Source: a virus (Duplodnaviria > Heunggongvirae > Uroviricota > Caudoviricetes). Taken from it: a DNA stretch of 64,000 bases. The notes under the pieces were generated by a model. That model was not told the origin of the DNA. It saw only the letters and a program-made list of their open reading frames with translations, and made no database searches. The translations under genes were made by a program, and so were the position numbers. Shown one piece after another: positions 13,662 to 61,717 of the stretch. The DNA is taken from the IMG/VR virus record IMGVR_UViG_3300026382_000007. The stretch is one strand, 5' to 3'. Numbering within the stretch: position 1 is the first letter of the stretch; each line of letters starts with the position of its first letter.

Positions 13662-15233
13662 ATGATTACTACAGAATATGTTGAATTGCCTCAGGCAACA
13701 TCAATCACTCCTAATGTCGGAGCACATGGCGAAAACTCCGAGGCGACGGGAAAGAACACATCAGCACTGGCTAGTAACTCTTCTGCTTCCGGCGAAGAAA
13801 CACTAGCCAGTGGAAAAGATTCGACTGCTAAGGGGTTTAAAACTGTAGCCCATGGAGATGCTTCGAGTGCTGAAGGAGCTGGATCTATATCTTATGGACA
13901 CTTAAGTCATACAGAGGGTGAAAACTCTATGGCTTTCGGTACTGCTTCGCATGCTGAGGGTGGGAATATAAGTATGTCTCCTATGCTTCCTTTAAGACAT
14001 ACAGAGGCTGAAACCCCTATGGCTTTCAGTACTGCTTCGATTGCTTTTCCAACAAAGGCTGGTGGTCGTGCTTCGCATGCTGAGGGTGCTGGTACAAGAA
14101 CCGGAGGGTTTGACTCTGAAGAAACTCCAGTATTTGATGATATTTGGGAAGGAGACGAAAATGAGGGTGCTTATGCCCATGCTGAAGGATTCAAGACTGT
14201 AGCTTACGGTCAATCATCTCATGTTGAGGGTGTTGAAACATATGCCGAAGGAAAGGCATCTCATGCAGAGGGTGTTGAAACATATGCCTCAGGAGAGGCA
14301 TCTCATACAGAGGGGTATGTTTCATATGCCTCAGGATTTGCATCTCATGCAGAGGGATATGGGACATATGTCGAAGGAGATGGATCTCATGCCGAGGGTT
14401 ATGGGACTATAACGACTGGTAATTATTCTCATGCTGAAGGAAATGCATCTCATGCAGAAGGATATGCATCTCATGCAGAAGGGCTCAGAACTAGAACTTA
14501 TGGATCTTATTCTCATGCTGAAGGGATCAGTACATATGCCGAAGGAAAGGCATCTCATGCAGAAGGGCTCAGAACTATTGCTAGAGGGGCAAAAGTTTCA
14601 CATGCTGAAGGAGCCGACACTATTGCTTCTGGTTGTGGTTCACATGCAGAAGGTCATCTTTCCATAGCAGAAGGAGATAATTCTCATGCCGAAGGACATG
14701 GAACTAATGCTTCTGCTAAGAATGCCCATGCTGAGGGTGAAACTACAATTGCTTCCGGTGAAGGATCTCATGCTGAGGGTCGCAAAAATGTAGCTGAAGG
14801 AAACTATTCTCATGCTGAAGGTGGGGGATCTAACGGTTCCGAAAGTTCTCCATACTATTATCTTAACCATGCTGGTGGAGAAGGATCTCATGCTGAGGGT
14901 GGCGACACATCGACTGGGGTTTATAATTCAAATGGGTATTATTATTACGGTGGTAGATTTGCGCATGCCGAAGGATATGGTTCTAATGCTGGTGCTGACT
15001 ATTCACATGCAGAAGGAGAGTATTCAACTGCTTCCGGTGATGGATCTCATGCCGAGGGTTATGGGACTATAACGACTGGGTCACATTCCCATGCTGAAGG
15101 ATATAGCTCAAGAGCATATGGAACTAACTCACATGCTGAGGGTAGATACACACTTGCGGACGGTTTAAATAGTCATGCAGAGGGCGAATCAATCACTGGT
15201 ACATTCACATTTGAAGCTTTAGGAGGCGAGTAA
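13662..15233 (+). CDS. tail fibre protein with phage fibre SHAEG-type repeats
   Basis: dozens of G..SHAEG..T.A.G repeats (phage tail fibre repeat pattern). Confidence 0.55.
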   Translation: MITTEYVELPQATSITPNVGAHGENSEATGKNTSALASNSSASGEETLASGKDSTAKGFKTVAHGDASSAEGAGSISYGHLSHTEGENSMAFGTASHAEGGNISMSPMLPLRHTEAETPMAFSTASIAFPTKAGGRASHAEGAGTRTGGFDSEETPVFDDIWEGDENEGAYAHAEGFKTVAYGQSSHVEGVETYAEGKASHAEGVETYASGEASHTEGYVSYASGFASHAEGYGTYVEGDGSHAEGYGTITTGNYSHAEGNASHAEGYASHAEGLRTRTYGSYSHAEGISTYAEGKASHAEGLRTIARGAKVSHAEGADTIASGCGSHAEGHLSIAEGDNSHAEGHGTNASAKNAHAEGETTIASGEGSHAEGRKNVAEGNYSHAEGGGSNGSESSPYYYLNHAGGEGSHAEGGDTSTGVYNSNGYYYYGGRFAHAEGYGSNAGADYSHAEGEYSTASGDGSHAEGYGTITTGSHSHAEGYSSRAYGTNSHAEGRYTLADGLNSHAEGESITGTFTFEALGGE

Positions 15234-16498
15234 TGGCTACTATTAATAAGACTGGTGCATATGGTACTAACTCACATGCAGAGGGCTATGGAACCATAGC
15301 ATACGGATCTAACTCTCATGCTGAGGGTTATAAGACCATCGCATCAGGACCTAACTCTCATGCAGAAGGCGACCAAACACAAGCATTGAATTTTGCTTCT
15401 CATGCAGAAGGATCTAGATCAATCGCCAGAGGTTCGTTTTCTCATGCTGAGGGTGTTAGAACACTTTCTGATGAGTTTTCTACACATGCTGAGGGATATG
15501 ATACTACTGCTAGTGGGTATATTTCACATGCGGAGGGATATAAAACTACTGCTAGTGGATCAAGGTCTCATGCTGAGGGATATAAAACTACTGCTAGTGG
15601 TGCTGCGTCACACTCACAAGGTCGCTATACGACTGCTAATGGAGATGATTCACATTCAGCTGGGTATAACAGTTCTAGTAATGCTCACGGTTCTTATGCA
15701 TATGGTGCGAACTATGATTCTGATGGAACTACTAATTCTAGAAGTTATGCTGAAGCATCGGGAATTGGGTCTTGGACACATGGGTACGGTACTTCAGCAG
15801 ACACATATTTGGGTTTCGCACATGGTTTTAATTCACATGCAAAGGCTGATTATTCATTCGTGAGTGGTCGAAATGTTGATGCTTATGTGAAAGACCAAAA
15901 AGTCATGGGTGTATATAATCTCAGAAACGATGATGCTGCATTTATATATGGGCTGGGTGATGTTCCATCAGATTCACTTATTGAGGCTCGAAATGGTTTT
16001 GAGATTTTCTTTGACGGGAGAATTAAGTCGCCTATGCAAACATTTGCGCAAATAAAAGACTTATCTAATGACAAGTCACTAACTACTCGCGAATATGTAC
16101 ATAATAAAGAACTTTCCAACACTAAGGTCGGAAATGTATATATGGATCTTCTTCTTGAGCAAAATTATGATACTATGATGACTGCTGACATGGAAGTTTC
16201 ACTTCCTATAAATGTTGATGCTGGTCGTAATGGATTTATAACTTTTAGACAAGATGACCAAAACTTTGGAAATGTGATTACTAAATGGGCTTCGCCATTT
16301 CACTTTCAAGATGGATTGATATTACAACCAAATTTGGGTCGTAACATGGTAACGACATTTGAGTATAAAGTGATGAACGAAGACAATATTTTAGTGTCTA
16401 AAGTCTCCGAATACAGAGAACATTTACCACTTCAAGCTGATGAGTTTGGTCTTGATGATCTAGCTATCAATACGACTGGTGATTTACTTCTGGTTTAG
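15233..16498 (+). CDS. tail fibre protein 2 with SHAEG repeats and distinct C-terminal domain
   Basis: ATG overlaps upstream stop; N-half SHAEG repeats, C-half non-repetitive. Confidence 0.55.
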   Translation: MATINKTGAYGTNSHAEGYGTIAYGSNSHAEGYKTIASGPNSHAEGDQTQALNFASHAEGSRSIARGSFSHAEGVRTLSDEFSTHAEGYDTTASGYISHAEGYKTTASGSRSHAEGYKTTASGAASHSQGRYTTANGDDSHSAGYNSSSNAHGSYAYGANYDSDGTTNSRSYAEASGIGSWTHGYGTSADTYLGFAHGFNSHAKADYSFVSGRNVDAYVKDQKVMGVYNLRNDDAAFIYGLGDVPSDSLIEARNGFEIFFDGRIKSPMQTFAQIKDLSNDKSLTTREYVHNKELSNTKVGNVYMDLLLEQNYDTMMTADMEVSLPINVDAGRNGFITFRQDDQNFGNVITKWASPFHFQDGLILQPNLGRNMVTTFEYKVMNEDNILVSKVSEYREHLPLQADEFGLDDLAINTTGDLLLV

Positions 16499-49942: not shown

Positions 49943-50026
49943 GGGTTTTCAAAGTCGTTCGGATACGGCAGCAAGACTGTAAATCTTGTCTCTAGGGGAG
50001 TGGTTCGAGTCCACGGGAACCCACCA
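49943..50026 (+). tRNA. tRNA-Tyr(GTA), type II, CCA encoded
   Basis: acceptor gggtttt/ggaaccc, anticodon arm caaga-ctGTAaa-tcttg, T-loop ttcgagt. Confidence 0.7.
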
Positions 50027-50032
50027 TTACAT

Positions 50033-50109
50033 CTGGATATAGCTCAGTTTGGGAGAGCACTTGCTTTGGGAGCAAGGGGTCGTAGGTTCAATCCCTACTA
50101 TTCAGACCA
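50033..50109 (+). tRNA. tRNA-Pro(TGG), CCA encoded
   Basis: acceptor ctggata/tattcag, D gctc-agtttggga-gagc, anticodon loop ttTGGga. Confidence 0.7.
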
Positions 50110-50116
50110 TTTTTAT

Positions 50117-50190
50117 TGAGGTATAGTTCAACGGCAGAACATGCGACTTTGACTCGCATAATATAGGTTCGATCCCTATTACCTCATCCA
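50117..50190 (+). tRNA. tRNA-Gln(TTG), CCA encoded
   Basis: U1-A72 acceptor tgaggta/tacctca, anticodon loop ctTTGac. Confidence 0.7.
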
Positions 50191-50191
50191 T

Positions 50192-50266
50192 CCTTGGGTA
50201 GCTCAATGGTAGAGCAGTCGGTTGATAACCGGAAGAATTGTGGTTCAATTCCACTCCTGAGGACCA
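50192..50266 (+). tRNA. tRNA-Ile(GAT), CCA encoded
   Basis: acceptor ccttggg/cctgagg, anticodon loop ttGATaa. Confidence 0.65.
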
Positions 50267-50276
50267 ATACTAATAT

Positions 50277-50351
50277 ACCACGGTCGTCTAATGGTTAGGA
50301 CACCATACTTTCAATTTGGTAACCGGAGTTCAATTCTCCGTCGTGGTACCA
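50277..50351 (+). tRNA. tRNA-Glu(TTC), CCA encoded
   Basis: acceptor accacgg/tcgtggt; anticodon loop ctTTCaa (one stem mismatch). Confidence 0.6.
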
Positions 50352-50361
50352 GAATTACAAT

Positions 50362-50437
50362 GGGGTGTTAGCTCATCTGGGAGAGCACTAGGTTTGCAAC
50401 TTAGAGGTGCAGGGTTCGAGTCCCTGACACTCCACCA
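50362..50437 (+). tRNA. tRNA-Ala(TGC), CCA encoded
   Basis: acceptor ggggtgt with G3:U70, anticodon loop ttTGCaa. Confidence 0.8.
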
Positions 50438-50479
50438 ATTTATTATTCAGCATTCAGCCCATTAATAGTGGGTTAAATG

Positions 50480-50554
50480 GTGAGTATAGTACAATGGTTA
50501 GTACGGAGGGTTGTGAACCTTCTAATTCCAGTTCAATTCTGGATACTCACACCA
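50480..50554 (+). tRNA. tRNA-His(GTG), CCA encoded (G at -1 present)
   Basis: acceptor gtgagta/tactcac perfect, anticodon loop ttGTGaa, g at 50479. Confidence 0.75.
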
Positions 50555-50555
50555 T

Positions 50556-50630
50556 GGCTCGGTCGTCTAATGGTTAGGACAACTGGTTTTCGACCAGTTA
50601 ATCAGAGTTCAATTCTCTGTCGAGTCACCA
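50556..50630 (+). tRNA. tRNA-Glu(TTC) second copy (divergent), CCA encoded
   Basis: acceptor ggctcgg/tcgagtc, perfect anticodon stem actgg/ccagt, loop ttTTCga (G37 unusual). Confidence 0.55.
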
Positions 50631-50651
50631 ATTTATTTATAAGGCTATGAC

Positions 50652-51125
50652 ATGAAAGATATGTATATGGAAGATGTTGGCAGTTTGTCAAGTGAAACAT
50701 GTGATTTTATATCTGAAAAGCTGAAACAATTTAACACACGGCTGACTGATGAACAAGTTAAGGATCTCGTTGAGAACCAAATTTGGGACGCAGTTTTTGA
50801 AAAACTAGAAAACTTTTGTGACAATGATTACAGAAGTCAAATGGGATAAGGGGGTAATGCTGAAAAGCAACATCGTGGAGGAAGAAGTAACGGTCAATAT
50901 GTTAATGACAGTTTCGGCGAAAAAGTATTTCTTCAATCTTCTTACGAACTATTATGTTCCGAGATACTGAACGAAATGGGCATATTATGGGTTAGACCAA
51001 AATCACTTCCATATGAGATAGATGGTAAAAAGAGAAAATACTTCCCTGATTTTCTCCTAGTGGATTATGGTATCTATTTAGATCCCAAAAATGATTTTTT
51101 GATTAAAAAGATATTCCTAAAATAA
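50652..51125 (+). pseudogene. Vsr/DUF559-like PD-(D/E)XK endonuclease (homing-endonuclease-like), interrupted by in-frame TAA at 50847
   Basis: ORF 50652-50849 continues in same frame after stop; downstream segment ..YEIDGKKRKYFPDFLLVDYGIYLDPK resembles Vsr motif PGRPDFVFP. Confidence 0.4.
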
Positions 51126-51194
51126 GAGCAGTAGAAGAACAAAATGATGTTTCCGTATTCATTTTATCGAAACAAAACATAACAACAGATTTCA

Positions 51195-51270
51195 TGGCGA
51201 GTATCATAATGGCTAATGACACCACCTCATAAGTGGTTCTATGCTGGTTCAAATCCAGTCTCGCCAACCA
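51195..51270 (+). tRNA. tRNA-Met/Ile2(CAT), canonical cloverleaf, CCA encoded
   Basis: acceptor tggcgag/ctcgcca, anticodon arm accac-ctCATaa-gtggt. Confidence 0.7.
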
Positions 51271-51286
51271 AACCAAAAACAAACAT

Positions 51287-51357
51287 GCCAACCGATCAGG
51301 GATCAGTCAGTGCTCATAACACAGACCAGCTTAGATCGTTACTAAGGGTTGGCACCA
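51287..51357 (+). tRNA. atypical tRNA-like (CAT) with reduced D-arm and A54..T58 T-loop (atcgtta)
   Basis: acceptor gccaacc/ggttggc + CCA; anticodon loop ctCATaa; only ~14 nt between acceptor and anticodon stem. Confidence 0.4.
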
Positions 51358-51360
51358 AAT

Positions 51361-51434
51361 GCGGACATAGTATAAAGGGATTATGGCGGTCTTCCAAACC
51401 GTGGATGCGAGTTCGAGCCTCGCTGTCCGCTCCA
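51361..51434 (+). tRNA. tRNA-Gly(TCC), CCA encoded
   Basis: acceptor gcggaca/tgtccgc, anticodon arm gcggt-ctTCCaa-accgt. Confidence 0.65.
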
Positions 51435-51439
51435 AACAT

Positions 51440-51514
51440 ACTCGGTTATTTCAGTGGTAGAATGTCTCCCTTACAAGGAGGAGGTCGTTGGTTCGAGTCC
51501 AACACCGAGTACCA
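51440..51514 (+). tRNA. tRNA-Val(TAC), CCA encoded
   Basis: acceptor actcggt/accgagt, anticodon loop ctTACaa. Confidence 0.65.
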
Positions 51515-51528
51515 AACACAACAAACAT

Positions 51529-51604
51529 GCTCTTCTAGCTTATGTGGTACAAGCATCGGTTTGAAGAACCGAGGATTGAAGTTCAACTCTTCAGGGGAGC
51601 ACCA
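51529..51604 (+). tRNA. tRNA-Phe(GAA), CCA encoded
   Basis: acceptor gctcttc/ggggagc, D gctt..aagc, anticodon arm tcggt-ttGAAga-accga. Confidence 0.75.
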
Positions 51605-51736
51605 TATTTTAATTATAAAGGAATTATCATGAGAGATAAGGATAATAGAAAAATCACACAATCAAAAAAGTCGTACGATCGCAAGAAAGTACAAAAACAT
51701 CGTTGGCAGGATTAACATTCAATTAATCCAAAATAT

Positions 51737-51811
51737 ATGCATGTAGCTCAGAGGCAGAGCAATGGTCTCCAAAACCATAGGTCGAGATTTCGAAATTCTC
51801 CATGTATGCCA
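51737..51811 (+). tRNA. tRNA-Trp(CCA), CCA encoded
   Basis: A1-U72 acceptor atgcatg/catgtat, discriminator G, anticodon arm atggt-ctCCAaa-accat. Confidence 0.7.
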
Positions 51812-51813
51812 AT

Positions 51814-51885
51814 GCCCAAACTGACGGATTCAGACTCGAGGTTTCGACCCTTGATGTCAAGGTTCAACTCCTTGTTTGGGCTCCA
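51814..51885 (+). tRNA. tRNA-Arg(TCG)-like with short non-canonical D-arm, CCA encoded
   Basis: acceptor gcccaaa/tttgggc perfect; anticodon arm cgagg-ttTCGac-ccttg; D region only 16 nt. Confidence 0.5.
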
Positions 51886-51979
51886 CTTCAATTTACACAA
51901 TCAAAAACAAACTCAATTATCATCATTAAATATCGTCATAATATACAAAGTTCCCTGAGAAAACTCATAACTAAAATTT

Positions 51980-52005
51980 AAGAAAACTCCTGTATAATAG
52001 TAATG
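51980..52005 (+). promoter_or_regulatory. extended -10 promoter (TGnTATAAT)
   Basis: ctcctgTATAATag at 51991-51998 upstream of 52037 gene. Confidence 0.4.
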
Positions 52006-52036
52006 TTTATAACAGGATTTCCGAACAGAGGCGAAT

Positions 52037-52219
52037 ATGACAATTAAGTTCATACACAATAGAAAAACAGTTTTAGAATACACGGTTGCTAACTTAAGCG
52101 ATCCAATTGTTCCAAAAAAACACGACCAACTAGATATTGATGGTCAAAACATGGTTATTGTTGATTTTTCAGCATTCCAAGATTTAGTAGTATTCAAGGT
52201 GGAAACATGCGAAAAATAA
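52037..52219 (+). CDS. hypothetical small protein
   Basis: 60 aa; upstream TGnTATAAT promoter at 51991-51998. Confidence 0.35.
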   Translation: MTIKFIHNRKTVLEYTVANLSDPIVPKKHDQLDIDGQNMVIVDFSAFQDLVVFKVETCEK

Positions 52220-52683
52220 CACACATAATAGTTCATGAAAGTGACTCAGGATGGGGTGATGCCTCGGCTATAAATAGTTGGCATTTAGATAGAGGCTGGA
52301 ATGGTATTGGATATCACAAGGTTATCTTGAACGGAAAAAGAACCTCAAAATCAAAATATAAAGAGTCTGAAGATGGTATCATTGAGTGTGGTAGGATGCT
52401 ACATTTGAGTGGTGCTCATGCAAGAGGTTATAACAAACAATCAATTGGATTGTGTCTGATCGGAAAACATGGTAAATTCACGAGCTTACAAATGAGTACT
52501 TTAATGGATGAAATAGTCAGGCTAATGGGTGCTTATGATATCCCTACATCGAATGTATTGGGCCACTATGAAATTCCTCTTAGTGGTGGAAAAACTTGTC
52601 CGGAAATTGATATGATGATTTTCAGAAATGAATTGCAAATGAGACTTGATGCTCTTGATGCAATGAACAAATTTGGAGCATAA
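52207..52683 (+). CDS. N-acetylmuramoyl-L-alanine amidase (T7 lysozyme / PGRP family) - candidate endolysin
   Basis: IIVHESD..GYHKVI..GAHARGYNKQSIGLCLIG..HYEI..KTCPE aligns with T7 lysozyme zinc ligands and catalytic residues. Confidence 0.8.
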   Translation: MRKITHIIVHESDSGWGDASAINSWHLDRGWNGIGYHKVILNGKRTSKSKYKESEDGIIECGRMLHLSGAHARGYNKQSIGLCLIGKHGKFTSLQMSTLMDEIVRLMGAYDIPTSNVLGHYEIPLSGGKTCPEIDMMIFRNELQMRLDALDAMNKFGA

Positions 52684-52684
52684 C

Positions 52685-53239
52685 ATGTTAAAAAACACAA
52701 CAATAATTATTCAAGCACATAAGGTGATTGAACCTACATTATCTCAGGCACTAGCTATTTGCCCAAATGTCATAATTTTTAATGACAAGGCGAAATTTAA
52801 ACATGATTCGGCAACAGTTGTGAGAGGAAGAGGGTTTTCTGGAAAATATGAAGATGCATATGAAATGTGTTTACCATTAGTGCAAACAGAATTTGTTTGT
52901 AGAATAAATGGTGGAGATGAGATTTTGGATCTTCAGGAGCCAACTGGTGACATTTGGCTCGCTAGATATAATAAAGATCACCCAGACCATAAAATGGACA
53001 AAGATTATTTTAAACATGCTGGTGCTTCTATTATAAGTGGTTCAGTAATAAAAACTGAAATTATGAAAGATCTTCTTGATGGGTACACTGTTGAAAATAA
53101 GGCGAAGTGGGGAAAATTTGGAAAATATTGTGGTGATATAATTTTGAATTCAGAATTCAAAATTTCACAAGCTGAGACTCAAAGCCTAGATTTCACATTC
53201 AAAATGTGGGGTTCAAGAGAAAATTCATATAAAGTATAA
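52685..53239 (+). CDS. hypothetical protein
   Basis: RBS ggagcataacATG. Confidence 0.35.
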   Translation: MLKNTTIIIQAHKVIEPTLSQALAICPNVIIFNDKAKFKHDSATVVRGRGFSGKYEDAYEMCLPLVQTEFVCRINGGDEILDLQEPTGDIWLARYNKDHPDHKMDKDYFKHAGASIISGSVIKTEIMKDLLDGYTVENKAKWGKFGKYCGDIILNSEFKISQAETQSLDFTFKMWGSRENSYKV

Positions 53240-53466
53240 GAATTTTGTAATTCTTTTTGTGAAAAGGGGGTTTTGCTCCCTTCAACCATTAAATAGAAGT
53301 ATAAATAACAACAAGGAACTAAGATGAAGTCTGATAAAAGACCCACTTTAAGCTGTAATTTGAATTCGCTGAATTCGGATATGATTAAACTTTAGTTCAC
53401 CCTCTATCTCAGGGTGAACATTCACTCTGGGAGCAATTTTTAAATTCCCCCAAATTTCTTATCAAT

Positions 53467-53512
53467 CTTAAGTAAGCTCTAAGCTAACTTTAGGTATAAT
53501 ATACTATATGAA
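53467..53512 (+). promoter_or_regulatory. conserved promoter cassette (no obvious CDS downstream)
   Basis: aagtaagctctaagctaactttaggTATAATatactatatg; -10 53495-53500. Confidence 0.5.
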
Positions 53513-53563
53513 AAGTAAATGGTTATTCCGCTTCTTTTTATCGTTCTTTAAAGTTTATATGAT

Positions 53564-53608
53564 CTTTAAGCTGACTCTAAGTTAGTTTACGGTATAATAT
53601 AGGTAACG
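53564..53608 (+). promoter_or_regulatory. conserved promoter cassette copy (ctgactctaagttagtttacgg form) 1 of 3
   Basis: tttaagctgactctaagttagtttacggTATAATataggt; -10 53593-53598. Confidence 0.5.
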
Positions 53609-53679
53609 AAAGTTAAGTAACACGAATGAAGATTACAAAGGTTTATTTACCTTTGACTTAACTTTTAAATCTATCAAAG

Positions 53680-53724
53680 CTTTAAGCTGACTCTAAGTTA
53701 GTTTACGGTATAATATAGGTATCT
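53680..53724 (+). promoter_or_regulatory. conserved promoter cassette copy 2 of 3 (identical 38-mer)
   Basis: -10 53709-53714. Confidence 0.5.
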
Positions 53725-53863
53725 TAATAAGATGATAAGGTTTGTAAGGTGACTAAAGAGGTTCGAATCCTCCCTTGATTTTCAAGAGATTTTAAATGTT
53801 GGAAAAGTTGCCTCAACTCAGGTTCGAATCCTGACATTTTATTAAGTTTCAAATCTTTCAAAA

Positions 53864-53908
53864 CTTTAAGCTGACTCTAAGTTAGTTTACGGTATAATAT
53901 AGGATAAA
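53864..53908 (+). promoter_or_regulatory. conserved promoter cassette copy 3 of 3 driving GC-rich noncoding region
   Basis: -10 53893-53898. Confidence 0.5.
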
Positions 53909-54280
53909 CTCTTTAATCAGGGCATCGATAAGCGGTCTAAGTCTTTTGACTGTGACCGCAACACGGTGTCTTTATTAAAGAGTTTAGTGTTTAGCTGACA
54001 CGACACTCTGAGTTTTGAAGTCAGAACCTTGGGAATGTAGCATAGAGGTAAATGTAACTGCCGTGGAGGCAGAGAAGAGGGATCGTTACCCTCCTTTCTC
54101 TACAAGGGTTTTGAGTGAAAAATGTTGATCTTTTCGAGCACACTAGTCACTGCTCGAAAACTCAACATGAACGAATAGAAAGTCACTGTGCTGGGATCAC
54201 CTGGATTTCAGTGAAACTTCTAACCGAGTTTGCAAGGTAGCACCTTGCGACTCAATGAATTACGAAATTTATTATATGAT

Positions 54281-54325
54281 TAAGCTTCTTTTAAGGAAGT
54301 TTACAGTATAATAACGGTAACTTAA
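54281..54325 (+). promoter_or_regulatory. promoter variant inside noncoding region
   Basis: aagcttcttttaaggaagtttacagTATAATaacggtaactt; -10 54307-54312. Confidence 0.4.
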
Positions 54326-55805
54326 AAGGAAACTATAAGAACTTCATTAAGTTCATATCGGCATCCAGGGATAGTGTCTACTGCAAAGTATCGGCATCCG
54401 TGGCTAGTGTTTATGAATTTAATGAAGTGCTTAGTACATAATGTCTGGCTTGGTTGTAGGTTTGCCCTATGTCAACGAAGACAAAGTGGAACGGGATTTC
54501 CGGACGCATATATTCGTAAAGATACTCTCAGTAATGGGACGAAAGGGGGATTGATAATCCTTCGCGGAAGTAATTCCGAACAAGTATGCAAAACAGAAAA
54601 CTCATTAAGACATCATCACGGTGGTGTTCGAATTGAACGATGAAGTACGAACTAAACAGTCTGGCCAACGGTGACACTGTTTGATCCCGCAAGGATCTAG
54701 TACATGCAAAATTCATAAGAAATGACAAGTTTAATCTGTAGTTCATTGGTCCGAGTCGTAACTGGCAAGGGCTTATGTTCAGTCTACATGAAAAAAGTCG
54801 CAAGGCTGAGTATCGTGATGGACGGTGAAAGTAGTGTGTTGCATGAAATCACAAAAGGTGGGAAGCATTCTGAGGCTCAAAAGGCTTTGGAACTTCTGAG
54901 GGAGCCCATCTTTATCAATCCGTAATAGCTTAAAGATAAGCATTTGTATTTGGCACAAAAGATTCAGGGTCATACCTGATTACTAATAAAAAACGCAAAG
55001 TCTCCCTCACCGTCACTTGAAAGTGGCTTAAGTCTACACCCATAATGTGGGAATGAAGACATGTTGATGCTCGCAAGGCGGATATATGTTTAGTGGAAAG
55101 CAAAGTTATCCGGCTCGCACTGGAGAATGGCTCGCAAGGTCAGACTGAGTAGAACATTAGAGTAGAGTGACGGGATGCAAGAAAAGCTACTTGTTGGCGA
55201 AAGCCTAAACAAAAGCAGTCATTGGAAATACTCGACCGAAAGGATGAGTGGATAACACTGGGAAACAATAATCCAGTCAAAGGTTCCAGCTGAAAGCTAT
55301 AATCTCAGGCTTCAAAATAAACTTTAAGAGTTTATTGAAATAAATTTGTGTAGCAGTGTTCGACTCCCGACCCACACAGAGTGGGTATTAAACGGGCAAC
55401 TGTTATTGGCACTGGTGTGGGATCACGAGGATTATGAAAAGAATAATCGCAAATTTATTTCAATAAGTTCTTAATTTACTCAAAATGAAGAATGGAATGT
55501 AGGCTTATCAAGTTGAAAGTGTGAGAACTGGATGTGGAATTGGCTTATGAAACTAGAAGAAATTGTTTCTAACGAAAGTACGGATGAATGAATGAATATG
55601 AGATGCAAATTGGGTTTACCAGATAATTCTCTCCGGAACTCTTAGTAGAAAAGAACATCACTGAGGTTGTATATTCAGTGATTGACTTTCAAACTTTTAT
55701 TATATGCTTTGAATGGGTCAGAAGATAATGATGGAGGGTGCGCACCTGAAGTCAGTGATGATATGACAAATCACTTTGAAAATGATAATATTTAAGTTTT
55801 CAGAA

Positions 55806-55837
55806 GTGGTGAGGTTCGATCCCTCACCTTTGCACCA
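55806..55837 (+). ncRNA. tRNA 3'-half-like element (T-arm + acceptor 3' strand + CCA) with no matching 5' half nearby
   Basis: tgagg-ttcgatc-cctca then cctttgc-a-cca; no gcaaagg-type 5' partner found within 100 nt. Confidence 0.3.
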
Positions 55838-55851
55838 ACAAATTTTAAATG

Positions 55852-55924
55852 TGCGGGGAACAGCGGATGTAATTTGGGCTCATAACCCAGACCCTGTGGG
55901 TTCAACTCCCACCCACCGCAACCA
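55852..55924 (+). tRNA. atypical initiator-like tRNA(CAT) with reduced D-arm
   Basis: anticodon stem with three consecutive G-C pairs (ttggg/cccag), loop ctCATaa, T-arm gtggg-ttcaact-cccac, CCA; acceptor tgcgggg/caccgca with one mismatch. Confidence 0.4.
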
Positions 55925-55929
55925 AATAT

Positions 55930-56006
55930 TGTATACGATTTCTCCAGGCGAGAAAGCTTGACTGTTAATCAAGAAGTGACTGGTTCGAGTCCAGTGTATA
56001 CAGCCA
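55930..56006 (+). tRNA. tRNA-Asn(GTT), CCA encoded
   Basis: acceptor tgtatac/gtataca perfect, D tttc..gaaa, anticodon arm cttga-ctGTTaa-tcaag. Confidence 0.75.
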
Positions 56007-56021
56007 AACAACTTAAATTTA

Positions 56022-56101
56022 AGAACTCTGTCCTTGATCGGGATTAATATGGTACGAGCGGAAATGATCATCCGTGGACTGTTCGACTCAGTCGAGTTCT
56101 T
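56022..56101 (+). ncRNA. tRNA-like element, 80 nt, no CCA, fold unresolved
   Basis: perfect 7-bp acceptor agaactc/gagttct and T-arm gactg-ttcgact-cagtc; internal arms not assignable by eye. Confidence 0.3.
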
Positions 56102-56350
56102 AAATTTGGGTTGATTACCTGAAGAGTCGCTATTGTTTTCGACTCAAAAAATACACAAACACGATAGTAAGTGATCGATACACACCACTGTTGGCATATC
56201 GCACAGACGATGCAGCGAGTTCCGGCTACACAGGGCAGAGGGAAACATCTAGAAGGTTTCATCGCAATTGTACATTGTGCGATTAACAAACTAAAATGAG
56301 CAAAAACTCGACCCACTTAAAGATTTAATCAATCTCGGGTCGTTTCAAGT

Positions 56351-56427
56351 GGCCTACTAACTCAATTGGCTAGAGTGTCTCGTTGTCTGCGAGAAGGTTA
56401 TCGGTTCGAGTCCGATGTGGGTCGCCA
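56351..56427 (+). tRNA. tRNA-Asp(GTC), CCA encoded (U37 unusual)
   Basis: acceptor ggcctac/gtgggtc, D actc..gagt, anticodon arm tctcg-ttGTCtg-cgaga. Confidence 0.55.
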
Positions 56428-56935
56428 TTTTCAAAATTGAATAAAGTAACTAACTAGAGTGGGAATGCTTGGATTGAGTTCTAGCACATACCTTAATAAT
56501 GTTCTCGCATCCTTGATTTAGCGATCACGGGACAAGTACACATGCTCCTCTATGATACAATATGCATCACTTGTATCATAAATGTTTGTTATTTTATTCA
56601 GTCTTGCAAGAATAAACTGAAGTGTCGGAATATCAAGAACTGCACTATAAAGTACGATTATCTGGTGAGATGCATACTGCTGAACCTACTCTAAAAGGGT
56701 TATGGCACCAATGGAAGATCATTCTGGACGGCTCCAGACACAGACTTGAAATCTGTAGGCATTTTAAAAGCAGTGTGGGGATCGACACCTCGTTCTTCCT
56801 CCATTTTAAATATAAACATAAGGAAATACAATGAAAACGACAAAATTAACGAAAACGACAAAACTTACAGACACATCTGAAAGAGATAGTTAGGTAAAAC
56901 TAGCTATGGGGTGTGTCTTTAATAAAAATAAAGAT

Positions 56936-57010
56936 GCATCCGAAGCTTAGTTGGCGAAGCACACGACTTTTAATCGTGGGAACAGAGTTCGATTCTCTGC
57001 GGTTGCACCA
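56936..57010 (+). tRNA. tRNA-Lys(TTT), CCA encoded
   Basis: acceptor gcatccg/cggttgc (one mismatch), anticodon arm cacga-ctTTTaa-tcgtg. Confidence 0.65.
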
Positions 57011-57018
57011 TTCAATGT

Positions 57019-57094
57019 GGATGTGTAACTCAATTGGCAGAGTACTCGGCTTTTAACCGAGAGGTTGTGGGATCATTGCCCACCGCATCCACCA
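57019..57094 (+). tRNA. tRNA-Lys(TTT) second divergent copy with A54..T58 T-loop (atcattg)
   Basis: acceptor ggatgtg/cgcatcc, anticodon arm ctcgg-ctTTTaa-ccgag. Confidence 0.55.
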
Positions 57095-57095
57095 T

Positions 57096-57170
57096 GCTTA
57101 ATTAGTATAGTGGCGATTATCCTCGTTTTGTAATCGAGGGACAGGTGTTCGATTCACCTATTAAGCTCCA
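57096..57170 (+). tRNA. tRNA-Thr(TGT), CCA encoded
   Basis: acceptor gcttaat/attaagc perfect; anticodon loop ttTGTaa; weak D-stem. Confidence 0.55.
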
Positions 57171-57182
57171 AATTTTTAAAAT

Positions 57183-57259
57183 GCCGGATTAGCTCCAACT
57201 GGAAGAGCATTTCACTTGTAATGAAAGGGCTATCTGTTCGAATCAGATATCCGGCACCA
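57183..57259 (+). tRNA. tRNA-Thr(TGT) second copy, CCA encoded
   Basis: acceptor gccggat/atccggc perfect, D gctc..gagc, anticodon arm tttca-ctTGTaa-tgaaa. Confidence 0.7.
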
Positions 57260-57744
57260 TTTATAGTATAAAGAACATTTTGGTGATTTTTGTACTGTTA
57301 AATGTTCACACTAAATCAAAAACAATGGTAGGGTAAATGAGTATGCATGCTTCCGCTCATCAGTCCAGAAAATTGAGAAGTGTAAAAAGGTCTATTGTAG
57401 CCTCAGAACCTTGAAAGGGAGAGGGAATATGCCTTGGAGATATCCAAAAGCTTTTTGGCGAAAATTTGTGCAAAACAAAATCCGCTCCAATCAACTCAAT
57501 TATATACAAGGGATTTTATAACAGTCACCTGATCTTGTATATAATTGAGCGGATTTCGACCTAAATGATTGCCTCCGACTTCAACAAGACAAAGGCTCAA
57601 GAAAATCATTTGTTAGGGTTGTGCCCATCTTACACGGTTCTTGTTCCGGTGTAGGCTCTGGGGAACTCTCTGAGTCGTCCGCTCCAACAAACGACTGCCC
57701 TCTATTTGAACTTATTGTAAGGTCATTCAACGGTGGTTTTTTAT

Positions 57745-57831
57745 GCTTCTCTGGTGGAATTGGTATACACGGTGGTCTTAGAAACCACTGCTCGAAAGGG
57801 CTTCCGAGTTCGAGTCTCGGGGGAAGCACCA
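57745..57831 (+). tRNA. tRNA-Leu(TAG), type II, CCA encoded
   Basis: acceptor gcttctc/gggaagc, anticodon arm gtggt-ctTAGaa-accac, variable hairpin gctc-gaaa-gggc. Confidence 0.7.
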
Positions 57832-57865
57832 TAATTTTTATTATAAACTAAAACAAGGAAGGCAA

Positions 57866-57979
57866 ATGTCGCACATAAATGCAAAAATTGCTGAACTTGA
57901 GAAAGACGGTAAACGAGAAAACATAGATTTTCGTATAGTATATTTTTCAGAATCAGCAGAATTAAAAATGTTGAAATAA
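57866..57979 (+). CDS. small protein (37 aa), below the ORF-track cutoff
   Basis: RBS aaggaaggcaaATG; MSHINAKIAELEKDGKRENIDFRIVYFSESAELKMLK. Confidence 0.25.
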   Translation: MSHINAKIAELEKDGKRENIDFRIVYFSESAELKMLK

Positions 57980-58103
57980 CAAAATTCAAAAAAGGAGTCA
58001 CGAATGTTGACAAGGTTAAGATCATTATCAAGATGTTTATGTTTAAGATTATTGTCAATTCGTGATGGATTGAGTTGTAGCTAAACTGCTATAATTTCAA
58101 TTC

Positions 58104-58189
58104 GGATAGTGCAAGCAAGGTGCTTAAGGTGGTTGCTAACCACTGGGGTGTAAACAGCCTGATGGGTTCAATTCCCATACTATCCTCCA
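58104..58189 (+). tRNA. tRNA-Ser(GCT), type II, CCA encoded
   Basis: acceptor ggatagt/actatcc perfect, anticodon arm ggtgg-ttGCTaa-ccact, long variable arm. Confidence 0.65.
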
Positions 58190-58280
58190 TCTTCAATTAG
58201 TACATTCAGTACAACCTTCAAAAACACAAACACTTTATTATTCATTCACAAATTTACTTGGTTATTCAAGCAACACATAT

Positions 58281-58367
58281 GCTCTCATGGTGGAATTGGC
58301 ATACACAATGGACTTAAAATCCATGGCTCGGAAGGGCTTCTCGGTTCAAATCCGAGTGGGAGCACCA
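58281..58367 (+). tRNA. tRNA-Leu(TAA), type II, CCA encoded (no intron)
   Basis: acceptor gctctca/tgggagc, anticodon arm atgga-ctTAAaa-tccat, variable hairpin gctc-ggaa-gggc. Confidence 0.7.
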
Positions 58368-58381
58368 TACTAAACAAATGT

Positions 58382-58457
58382 GCCGATGTACTTCAACGGA
58401 TAGAAATTCCGACTTCTAATCGGAAAGTTGGGGGTTCAAGCCCCTCCATCGGTACCA
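58382..58457 (+). tRNA. tRNA-Arg(TCT), CCA encoded
   Basis: acceptor gccgatg/catcggt, anticodon arm tccga-ctTCTaa-tcgga. Confidence 0.65.
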
Positions 58458-58458
58458 T

Positions 58459-58533
58459 GTATGATTGGCCAAATGGTAAGGCACGGGATTGCAAATCCTG
58501 AGATTGTCAGTTCGAGTCTGACATCATGCTCCA
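58459..58533 (+). tRNA. tRNA-Cys(GCA), CCA encoded
   Basis: acceptor gtatgat/atcatgc, anticodon arm cggga-ttGCAaa-tcctg. Confidence 0.65.
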
Positions 58534-58567
58534 ATTTTGATGTATTAAATATCAACAAGGTTGTAAA

Positions 58568-59095
58568 ATGAACAAATTAGAATTCAATGAAGAAAACTTC
58601 GACATGTTAGTCGAGAGGATGCACTTCCTCAGGGAAGAAGTTAAAAAATACAAATATGACCATTTAACTGGTTTAAAACTCAGAAAAGATTTTGATGAGA
58701 AGCTTGATAGGATGTATGAAGCTTATGAATTTGAAGATCAACCATTTGTTTTCATTATGGCAGATGCTGATGGTCTACACAATACTAATAGGACTCTAGG
58801 TTATGATGCTGGTGATGAGCTTCTTATAACTATATCGAGTGAGCTCCGTGCGGAGTTCGGTGATTGTAGAAATGTTGATATATTTCGAATATCCGGCGAC
58901 GAATTTGCGGTTTTGATGACTGGTGATTTGTGTGGCGATGCAATTGACGAAAAAATGAAAAATGTCACAAGTTGCTCATATGCATCAGTCTTCATGGATG
59001 AGACTGAATGTCATCCAAGCCCATCATCTGTTTTTAAGTGTGCTGATAAAAAACTCACTGAAGTAAAGAAAACTAAAAAGCCTGAAAGAATTTAA
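58568..59095 (+). CDS. GGDEF-domain protein (diguanylate-cyclase-like, SGDEF variant)
   Basis: DHLTGL, FVFIMADADGLHNTNRTLGYDAGDELL and RISGDEFAVLM align with PleD-type GGDEF core (DQLTGL / LIDIDFFKKIND..GDEVL / RYGGEEFVVIM). Confidence 0.65.
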   Translation: MNKLEFNEENFDMLVERMHFLREEVKKYKYDHLTGLKLRKDFDEKLDRMYEAYEFEDQPFVFIMADADGLHNTNRTLGYDAGDELLITISSELRAEFGDCRNVDIFRISGDEFAVLMTGDLCGDAIDEKMKNVTSCSYASVFMDETECHPSPSSVFKCADKKLTEVKKTKKPERI

Positions 59096-59858: not shown

Positions 59859-60137
59859 ATGAGACCACTCGGATTTAAAGTAATTATAGAAAAGAAAACG
59901 GTGCAAGCGGAACAAACTTCCGGAACACTTATTATTGAACTTGAAAAGTCAACTTCAGATGCTGACGATGTTAGTGAGGGAACTGTAATTTCAGTAGGAA
60001 ATGAAGTAAACTCTGTGATACATATGATAGATGTTGGTGATACCGTGAAATATGAAAATCATGGTGGGTATGAAGTGAATATTGACGGTAAAGACCTGAT
60101 TATAGCTGATATCAAAAACATTCTGGTGGTATTATAA
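59859..60137 (+). CDS. groES: co-chaperonin GroES/gp31-like
   Basis: 92 aa; MRPLGFKVIIEK..GTVISVG..VGDTVKY pattern parallels GroES; immediately upstream of GroEL with ATGA overlap. Confidence 0.6.
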   Translation: MRPLGFKVIIEKKTVQAEQTSGTLIIELEKSTSDADDVSEGTVISVGNEVNSVIHMIDVGDTVKYENHGGYEVNIDGKDLIIADIKNILVVL

Positions 60138-61717
60138 TGAAAGATATTTTATATGGTTCAGAAGCGAGAGAACTTCTACAAGTTGGTGTTAATAAATTAG
60201 CAAAGGCGGTTGCGGTGACTATGGGACCTCTTGGTCGTAATGTTCTAATTCAGAGGGATAATGAAAATCCATTTCTCACCAAGGACGGTGTTACGGTAGC
60301 TGGTGAAGTTCAATTGAAGAATCCAGTTGAAAATATGGCAGCAAGTCTAGTGAAAGAAGTTTCATCAAATACGGCATTCGAAGCTGGTGATGGTACGACT
60401 ACATCTACTGTTTTAACTGATGCAATTTTCACACACGGTGTTGATGGCATCAAAAGTTCAACGAATATCGTTGAAATGAAAAAGGGTATGGATTCAGCGG
60501 TTCGTGAGGTTGTAAGCTACATTGAAATGAATAGTCGTAAGATTACATCTCATGAAGAAATTAAGCAAATTGCTACTATTTCAGCGAATTCAGATGTTCC
60601 TATGGGTCAGATGATTGCGGATGCTATGGAAGCTGTTGGTGAAGACGGGATTATCAATATCGAAGAAAATAACGGTGTGACGGATGAACTTGCCTCAACT
60701 AAGGGCTTCAAATTCAATCGTGGTTACATGAGTCCAAACTTCGTGACAAATCCTGGTAAAGAAATTGCTGAACATGAAAATCCTTTCATTTTAGTAACTG
60801 ATCAGCGAATTGGCCATTTAGCACACATATTACCTATTCTACAAAAGGTTCAGGAAACTGCAAGACCACTTATAATTTTAGCGGATGACTTTGACCCTGA
60901 AGCACTTAACACAGTTGTAGTGAATAAGGTTCGTGGTATCATGAATATGACGGTTGTAAAGTTACCAGGGTTTGGTGACGGAAAACGAGATCAGATGATT
61001 GACATTGCTATGACTTCAGGTGCTACTATTGTTGGTGCTGAAACTGGTCGTACATTTGAGTCACTGACTTTAGAAGATCTCGGTGAAGCGAAGCGAGTTG
61101 TAGTTGAGAAACAGAATACTATTATCATCAACGGAAAGGGATCAAGTACTGAAGAAATTACTCAGCATAAAAATGCCTTAAAAGTACAAATTGAAGCACT
61201 CCCAGATGGTGATGCTAAAGTGTCTCTTAAATCTAGATTATCCCGCCTTTCAGGTGCAGCAGCAGTTATCAGAGTTGGTGCTCAGACTGAACTTGAAATG
61301 AGAGAAAAGAAAGATAGATTTGATGATGCGGTTGCGGCAACAAAAGCAGCAGTGGCTGAGGGTATTGTTATTGGTGGTGGTTCTGCTTTGGCTAGGGCTT
61401 CACATTTCATCAAAGTGAATAGACAATCAACCAGTTCTGATTTTGACAAAGGGTTCGATGTGATTCTTGAAGCATGTTTTGCTCCTATAGAACAAATTGC
61501 AAATAATGCTGGTCGTAACGGCATTGAGATCGTTGGTGATCTTTCTGAACATGAGAATGAAAACTTCGGTTGGAATGCTCTTACTGATACTTATGAAGAT
61601 TTATTTGAATCAGGTGTCATCGATCCGCTCAAAGTGACTAGAATTGCAATAATCAATGCTTGTAGTTGTGCTTCTACTCTTTTAACTACTGAAACGGTAA
61701 TTTATACAGAAGATTAA
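60137..61717 (+). CDS. groEL: chaperonin GroEL (Cpn60)
   Basis: AVAVTMGPLGRNVLI..FEAGDGTTTSTVLT..equatorial domain motifs, 526 aa. Confidence 0.85.
   Translation: MKDILYGSEARELLQVGVNKLAKAVAVTMGPLGRNVLIQRDNENPFLTKDGVTVAGEVQLKNPVENMAASLVKEVSSNTAFEAGDGTTTSTVLTDAIFTHGVDGIKSSTNIVEMKKGMDSAVREVVSYIEMNSRKITSHEEIKQIATISANSDVPMGQMIADAMEAVGEDGIINIEENNGVTDELASTKGFKFNRGYMSPNFVTNPGKEIAEHENPFILVTDQRIGHLAHILPILQKVQETARPLIILADDFDPEALNTVVVNKVRGIMNMTVVKLPGFGDGKRDQMIDIAMTSGATIVGAETGRTFESLTLEDLGEAKRVVVEKQNTIIINGKGSSTEEITQHKNALKVQIEALPDGDAKVSLKSRLSRLSGAAAVIRVGAQTELEMREKKDRFDDAVAATKAAVAEGIVIGGGSALARASHFIKVNRQSTSSDFDKGFDVILEACFAPIEQIANNAGRNGIEIVGDLSEHENENFGWNALTDTYEDLFESGVIDPLKVTRIAIINACSCASTLLTTETVIYTED

Follow-up and report, generated by a model that had tools for sequence, protein, structure and literature searches.

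Why does a tailed phage carry a gene for a lone GGDEF domain, and does that domain make cyclic di-GMP (c-di-GMP) in the infected cell? The question is raised by a 175-aa open reading frame (ORF) in a 64 000-nucleotide stretch of the IMG/VR virus record IMGVR_UViG_3300026382_000007 (Caudoviricetes), which is referred to here as the window. An earlier note on this DNA had described the product as a minimal phage GGDEF-domain protein with an SGDEF variant of the signature and as a potential cyclic-dinucleotide synthase. The ORF and all motif strings quoted there are present (DHLTGL, residues 31–36; KLRK, 37–40; the metal/substrate loop FVFIMADADGLHNTNRTLGYDAGDELL, 60–86; RISGDEFAVLM, 107–117), and the description is sound: the protein stands alone, its catalytic residues are intact and its signature variant can be active in other enzymes. 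On balance we consider it probable that the protein is a sensor-less, feedback-insensitive diguanylate cyclase (DGC), in which a short coiled-coil helix is fused directly to a compact GGDEF domain.

Membership of the GGDEF family, which the note had proposed from the motifs, is borne out by profile searches: PF00990 (GGDEF) in Pfam matches with E = 9.7e-17 and 61.6 bits (cutoff 23.8) and TIGR00254 with 58 bits (threshold 37.4). The PF00990 match spans only profile positions 2–90 of 161 (the N-terminal 56%). When the query and 13 homologs were combined into a family profile, residues 31–172 aligned with Leptospira DgcR (6zxb, E = 7e-16), including the C-terminal AD..K helix. An AlphaFold2 model computed with the family alignment (pLDDT 87, pTM 0.76) consists of an N-terminal helix (residues 8–27) followed by an α/β core that ends in a long helix (152–174). 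When this model was compared with the PDB using Foldseek, all 50 of the 50 best matches were GGDEF-domain proteins, mostly diguanylate cyclases, and the best full-length superpositions (TMq 0.72–0.77) were obtained with GCN4-WspR (3i5c), DgcB (coiled coil plus GGDEF, 6ttr), SiaD, DgcR, WspR and IsPadC. With the predicted model as its basis, the assignment to the GGDEF fold is secure. mCpol (Panoptes OptS) and the Cas10 palm, a distantly related RRM-like palm found in small stand-alone nucleotide cyclases of phage–host conflict, were considered as well; neither a closer fold or sequence match to them nor a degenerate GGDD-type motif was found, and this identity was rejected on the structure comparison, which is clearly GGDEF. 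The C-terminus is not truncated, since canonical domains also end about 15 residues past the Asp of the AD motif. The protein is minimal in that it has no accessory domain and a slightly shortened α3–β4 region, the GDEF-to-AD segment being 36–46 residues long versus 50–62 in canonical domains (5–15 shorter).

The gene is real because homologs of equal length exist (94, 89 and 64% identity) and because dN/dS against the 94% and 89% homologs is 0.05–0.08 (dS 0.44–2.0). Residues 3–76, which comprise the stalk helix and the nucleotide loop, show zero substitutions among the three closest relatives. We conclude that this is a functional gene under purifying selection and not a decaying host fragment.

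Conservation was counted in an alignment of 82 short sequences (the query and 81 relatives, ∼ 30–60% identical to it), with residue roles taken from PleD (PMC7288161, PMC12943098). The metal ligand D66 (PleD D327) is kept in 81 of the 82 sequences. The two guanine-binding residues N74 (PleD N335) and D83 (PleD D344) are kept in 82 and 76, respectively, with Asn replacing D83 in five sequences and Ser in none. R107 (PleD R366), which precedes the signature, is found in 80/82; G110, D111 and E112 (PleD G369, E370 and E371) are each invariant, D111 being at the position of the second metal ligand, and F113 (PleD F372) is present in 81/82. Signature position 109 is Gly in 61 sequences and Ser in 21, so that the SGDEF of the query is the minority variant; ECA3270 and MbaA show that cyclase activity is possible with SGDEF (PMC3974145, PMC8079147). 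Within the C-terminal helix, the phosphate-binding K167 (PleD K442) is kept in 80/82 and D160, the Asp of ADxxLYxAK, in 74/82. Because the metal-binding, guanine-binding and GDEF residues are 93–100% conserved, this pattern is best read as that of an active c-di-GMP synthase, and N74 together with D83 predicts guanine specificity and two GTP substrates.

The same positions bear on a further suggestion of the earlier note, that replacement of the NRR motif after LTGL by KLRK might indicate a Hypr-type enzyme making cGAMP. Hypr GGDEF proteins (GacA type, cGAMP synthases) share the fold and the signature, and their determinant is the exchange of the guanine-binding Asp (D344 of PleD) for Ser (PMC7288161). 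The phage protein retains this Asp as D83 and no member of its family has Ser there; Hypr membership was therefore rejected. The argument from KLRK is itself weak: the Asn of NRR is lost, and R39 aligns with the first NRR Arg and is kept in 71/82.

Two further features concern regulation. An RxxD-like motif (RNVD) lies at the position of the product-inhibition site (I-site), with a four-residue instead of a five-residue spacer to the signature. Its Arg is Lys in the 94% and 89% homologs (KNVD), and the columns concerned are mostly gaps across the family; by these alignments a conserved RxxD I-site is absent and the protein falls outside the product-inhibited DGC subclass. The second feature is the N-terminal helix, whose heptad a/d positions F11, L14, M18, L21, V25 and Y28 (a 3-4 pattern over about 2.5–3 heptads) are occupied by strongly hydrophobic residues in 75–99% of the family, with charged residues in between. 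The helix leads directly into Y28-K-Y-D-x-L-T-G-L and, in the model, superposes on the coiled-coil stalks of dimeric cyclases including the GCN4-WspR fusion. Because of the conserved heptad pattern and this overlay, we infer a constitutive dimer: sequence and model suggest a parallel coiled-coil homodimer in which the half-sites are held together at all times.

In the mechanism that we favour, the stalk helix would zip two protomers into a parallel dimer, the dimer would keep two GTP-loaded half-sites permanently together, and two GTP would be converted to c-di-GMP as soon as the enzyme is made in the infected cell. An unregulated rise in c-di-GMP is expected because there is no input domain and no RxxD site, and the host level would be driven high. 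The generic high-c-di-GMP state, flagellar motility off and adhesion and matrix on, might serve the phage. Flagellar or pilus receptors, for instance, could be lost or immobilized (superinfection exclusion), or the infected cell could be held close to others that are susceptible. We infer dimerization, enzymatic activity, product identity and physiological consequence alike, and the motility-off outcome would follow by analogy with general c-di-GMP biology. Switching off host motility is a believable route, not a new principle.

A number of observations weigh against an active, constitutively dimeric cyclase. H71 replaces the transition-state Lys (PleD K332), with His in 72/82 and Lys in 10/82, a conservative but real departure; the Pfam family definition does not use this Lys. 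The Arg of the GRN motif (PleD R446) corresponds to K171 in the query, and the position is not conserved in the family (Lys in 33, Tyr in 15, Arg in 5). Taken together, H71 and the variable R446 position could mean that activity is reduced or altered. The C-terminal half has diverged too far for Pfam to recognize it. Model confidence at the junction between helix and domain is only ∼ 61, and the amphipathic helix could instead pack elsewhere. No EAL, HD-GYP or PilZ domain and no c-di-GMP effector or phosphodiesterase was detected among ∼ 70 ORFs of the window; no partner gene is conserved beside the GGDEF family across 10 viral loci; and no experimental work on a stand-alone GGDEF protein from a phage turned up in a literature search.

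The loss of the transition-state Lys and the variability at R446 would also suit a GGDEF domain that is catalytically dead or very weak and works through binding, either sequestering GTP or c-di-GMP or using stalk and GGDEF domain to heterodimerize with a host GGDEF/EAL protein or effector, and so lowering or rerouting c-di-GMP signalling. Degenerate receptor or regulator GGDEF domains are known, LapD, FimX and PelD are among the structural matches, and peptides from phages are known to bind the host DGC YfiN (PMC8085984). We nevertheless regard this explanation as unlikely. A near-complete GDEF motif, a metal-binding Asp and a guanine-binding Asn kept in 81–82 of 82 sequences and a dN/dS of ∼ 0.06 are hard to explain without catalysis, and known receptor-type domains have a degenerate signature and use the I-site, which is absent here. 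The protein was accordingly not placed with PelD, LapD and FimX, its signature being intact and a conserved I-site absent.

The enzyme could also be an active DGC that serves other ends, with host metabolism, cell cycle or transcription reprogrammed for replication, or with a c-di-GMP-responsive defence or abortive infection triggered or blocked. What speaks for this is gene placement: family members elsewhere lie among replication and nucleotide-metabolism genes (ribonucleotide reductase, RNR, in loci L001 and L002; DNA ligase in L004), and in the present lineage the gene stands just upstream of GroES/GroEL, a position that suggests a takeover module of early or middle timing. The family shows no common neighbourhood, however, and the placement fits an effect on motility equally well; we give this alternative a low probability too.

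A third alternative starts from the distribution of the family. An exhaustive hidden Markov model (HMM) search of 1.84 billion representatives recovered the vast GGDEF superfamily, its top ranks dominated by ∼ 80 proteins of 140–220 aa that align with the query over its whole length (23 representatives with E < 1e-30). In the viral stand-alone proteins, H71 is consistently accompanied by R75, which replaces the Asp of 'ND', and by Y/F79, which replaces the His of 'GH', whereas ∼ 70 of 80 bacterial relatives carry Lys, Asp and His; the Tyr of ALYxAK is replaced by Thr or Ile. IMG/VR relatives that share this H/R/Y signature are stand-alone genes for proteins of 154–200 aa on viral contigs of up to 235 kb (L001–L008). 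All members of the clade among the matches listed come from viral or metagenomic contigs. The best matches listed from 185 579 species genomes have 29–41% local identity, and the bacterial relatives listed are almost all 280–1440 aa long with extra N- or C-terminal sequence; judged from these matches, the clade is likely absent from bacteria. A 163-aa GGDEF protein (P0016) was excluded from it as bacterial, having ribosomal-protein neighbours and the canonical K/D/H.

Such consistent rewiring (Lys to His, Asp to Arg and His to Tyr in the loop, loss of the NRR Asn, the variable R446 position), in a clade confined to viral or metagenomic contigs among the matches listed, might alter the chemistry itself. 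The enzyme would then make, for instance, linear pppGpG, a cyclic dinucleotide of mixed or non-canonical type, or a decoy nucleotide, and the phage would use this product to jam or pre-empt nucleotide-based host immunity; related palm enzymes (mCpol) do make decoy nucleotides in phage–host conflict (PMC12657218). We think this quite unlikely: with the guanine pair N74/D83 kept, both substrates should be GTP; the protein lacks the Hypr Ser; none of the substituted residues is a known determinant of base specificity, and they may co-vary merely for structural reasons; and PADLOC defence-system models gave no match. The idea of the earlier note that the protein could interfere with cyclic-oligonucleotide-based defence likewise gained no support from PADLOC or from the fold, which is GGDEF and not mCpol or Cas10. 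Very unlikely, in our estimate, is the bolder proposal that the clade is a counter-defence enzyme whose non-canonical guanine nucleotide (pppGpG or an unusual linkage), or massive unregulated c-di-GMP, saturates, mimics or mis-triggers host cyclic-nucleotide immune receptors as a phage-side mirror of Panoptes-type decoys.

The GGDEF gene (Table 1) begins 34 nt past tRNA-Cys, the final member of an array of 26 tRNA genes that lies directly upstream. A promoter scan found no sigma-70-like site on the plus strand before 59429, and so none between tRNA-Cys and the gene, and no terminator was predicted between the tRNA block and the gene; co-transcription with the tRNAs is plausible because of these two results. 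The array, in several blocks, covers 20 amino-acid specificities, with duplicates for Glu, Met, Lys, Thr, Leu and Arg. Between two of its blocks, in an ORF-free stretch (∼ 53240–55850), sits a GOLLD RNA (Rfam RF02032) that matches the full model (1–416) with 224 bits (gathering score 150, E = 1e-62) and contains a weak Rfam tRNA-like element (54919–54987). The Rfam model is only part of the giant GOLLD RNA, and the 5′ half may occupy upstream ORF-free sequence.

Downstream, the order GGDEF, small ORFs, GroES, GroEL is kept in the relatives at 94, 89 and 64% identity (the last being L104), and an identical GGDEF protein with the same gene order occurs on metagenomic contigs of 137 and 155 kb from several samples (including ERZ27262648 k141_255022 and JGI 3300026488 Ga0256838_1000018). 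In other phage lineages the neighbours vary, the gene following RNR subunits in L001/L002 and lying beside DNA ligase in L004. Only RNR, DNA ligase and a ∼ 190-aa protein without a Pfam match recur, in 3–4 of 10 loci. The ∼ 190-aa protein is encoded within 10 kb of the mini-GGDEF gene in four of nine other viral loci (L001 13999–14586, L002 15781–16359, L004 3117–3689, L005 10600–11160, in L005 directly downstream) and does not occur in the window.

The phage nature of the window is borne out by its content. Almost all genes lie on the plus strand. Recognizable domains include baseplate gp53, gp5, a tail-fibre-network protein, endonuclease VII, both RNR subunits, DNA ligase, dCMP deaminase, GroES/GroEL and an Amidase_2 endolysin, and the GroEL is 46% identical to that of Flavobacterium and Bacteroides phages. 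A megablast search of the window against GenBank phages found no near-identical DNA. The one sizeable gene on the minus strand encodes flagellin. The flagellin and pilin theme that the earlier note saw in this DNA stands for flagellin; for pilin, neither a Pfam family nor a class III signal-peptide motif was found among the ∼ 70 ORFs. The closest PDB sequence matches of the flagellin are 9yh1, 9ygu and 6x80 (C. jejuni FlaA), with E = 1e-57 to 6e-50, its counterparts in GenBank phage records are distant (27–46% identity), and at the other viral loci the GGDEF gene has no flagellin gene within 10 kb. A flagellin gene in the phage makes a flagellated host probable; this host is probably also a diderm and perhaps Campylobacterota-like. 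The lipobox and C-terminal transmembrane segment of a small protein encoded just past the GGDEF gene suggest unimolecular spanin architecture and likewise a diderm host, which also fits the Amidase_2 lysin and the YadA-head repeats in tail-fibre-like ORFs (two ORFs, best E = 1e-14 in a batch Pfam scan).

Two observations concern other genes that may act on nucleotides. A 97-aa ORF near the 3′ end of the window has a sub-threshold match to dUTPase_2/MazG-like proteins (E = 0.003, 18.1 bits, cutoff 22.9); it resembles all-α NTP pyrophosphohydrolases and could be related to the nucleotide pool or to alarmones. Just past the 3′ end of the window, the same phage (L100, 16137–20528) encodes three Metallophos proteins followed by an RtcB RNA ligase; the Metallophos products (calcineurin-like phosphoesterases) could be nucleases or cyclic-nucleotide phosphodiesterases.

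Table 1. Features of the GGDEF gene and its surroundings, in positions of the window.
Feature	Position	Strand	Basis or remarks
Stand-alone GGDEF protein, complete coding sequence	58568..59095	+	175 aa, ATG start, stop within coordinates; ORF list, Pfam, equal-length homologs, dN/dS
Weak Shine-Dalgarno AAGG	58557..58560	+	7 nt 5′ of the ATG; read from the sequence
N-terminal amphipathic stalk helix, residues 8–27	58589..58648	+	Proposed coiled-coil dimerization element
GGDEF catalytic domain, residues 29–175	58652..59092	+	
Metal/nucleotide loop D66-x-D-G-L-H71-x-x-N74-R75-x-x-G-Y79-x-x-G-D83	58763..58816	+	Alignments
RxxD-like R101-N-V-D104 at I-site position	58868..58879	+	Spacer to signature of 4, not 5, residues
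Active-site hairpin R107-I-S109-G-D-E-F113 (SGDEF)	58886..58906	+	Conservation; β-hairpin E104-109/E112-118 in model
C-terminal helix, residues 152–174, with D160 and K167 (canonical ADxxLYxAK)	59021..59089	+	DgcR profile alignment
Tail-fibre-like ORF, YadA_head inferred	13662-15230	+	Adjacent to the next ORF; phrog_25468 match in 6 stretches
Tail-fibre-like ORF with YadA_head (trimeric autotransporter adhesin) repeats	15233-16495	+	Confirmed
Flagellin, 274 aa, D0/D1 domains only	45013-45837	-	Flagellin_N E = 5e-40, Flagellin_C E = 7e-15
26 tRNA genes, several blocks	49943-58533	+	tRNA-Cys ends at 58533
GOLLD RNA	54853-55311	+	Rfam RF02032
u-Spanin-like lipoprotein, 89 aa	59155-59424	+	N-terminal lipobox LLTGC, C-terminal transmembrane segment; no Pfam match
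GroES (92 aa, Cpn10) and GroEL (526 aa)	59859-61717	+	Downstream of GGDEF gene
ORF, 97 aa	62946-63239	+	Sub-threshold dUTPase_2/MazG-like match

Phage GGDEF genes as such are not new. Examples already annotated are Bacillus phage G gp350, the 'diguanylate cyclase' of Bacillus phage SP-15 (183 aa) and a protein of Bordetella phage CN1 (152 aa), together with PHROGs 5594, 14602, 11823 and 9661. These annotated proteins are only 18–24% identical to the query in structural alignment and do not appear in tblastn at E ≤ 1e-3, and the matching PHROG profiles are 274–693 positions long, which indicates multi-domain families. The papers searched describe an experimental characterization of none of them. 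The tblastn search against GenBank phages gave weak matches only. Three were checked and none belongs to the H/R/Y stand-alone clade: all have the canonical K/D/H, and two lie in open frames of at least 333–471 aa with long N-terminal extensions. The third (H8; L110, OQ572403.1, 'Pseudomonas phage Y1' UNVERIFIED, 67922–71227) reads as a full-length WspR response-regulator cyclase, and its GGDEF sequence contains the stretch aligned to WspR PDB entries, which suggests host DNA in the record and not a phage gene. What is new is thus an apparently virus-restricted variant of a well-known enzyme family.

Diguanylate cyclases are also carried by conjugative elements: DgcK and DgcL of the SXT/R391 family of integrative and conjugative elements (ICEs) raise host c-di-GMP and lower motility. 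They are larger, sensor-linked canonical DGCs, unlike the minimal phage protein. Since phages and other mobile elements already have annotated GGDEF genes, the present gene opens no new category. If it is active, it would be a naturally minimal, constitutively on DGC of 175 aa by which large phages take over a host lifestyle switch, and a testable example of a virus writing, and not degrading or sponging, a bacterial second messenger. It would also offer a compact means of raising c-di-GMP, and its departures at K332, D336, H340 and R446 (PleD numbering) amount to a natural experiment on the dispensability of GGDEF residues. The flagellin gene of the same phage makes host motility a plausible common target.

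Compared with the canonical cyclases of PF00990 (PleD, WspR, DgcR and DgcZ), the protein lacks a sensor or receiver domain as well as a conserved RxxD I-site, and its loop departs from the canonical DxDxFKxxNDxxGH in carrying His, Arg and Tyr for Lys, Asp and His. It most resembles GCN4-WspR (3i5c) and Caulobacter crescentus DgcB (6ttr), in which a dimerizing helix is likewise fused directly to the GGDEF domain and which are the best whole-length matches when the N-terminal helix is included (phmmer from residue 8, Foldseek TMq 0.72–0.76). Of these, 3i5c was engineered as a fusion and the others are parts of larger proteins under regulation, whereas in the phage this two-part architecture, with dimerization by the stalk as its presumed function, makes up the entire natural protein.
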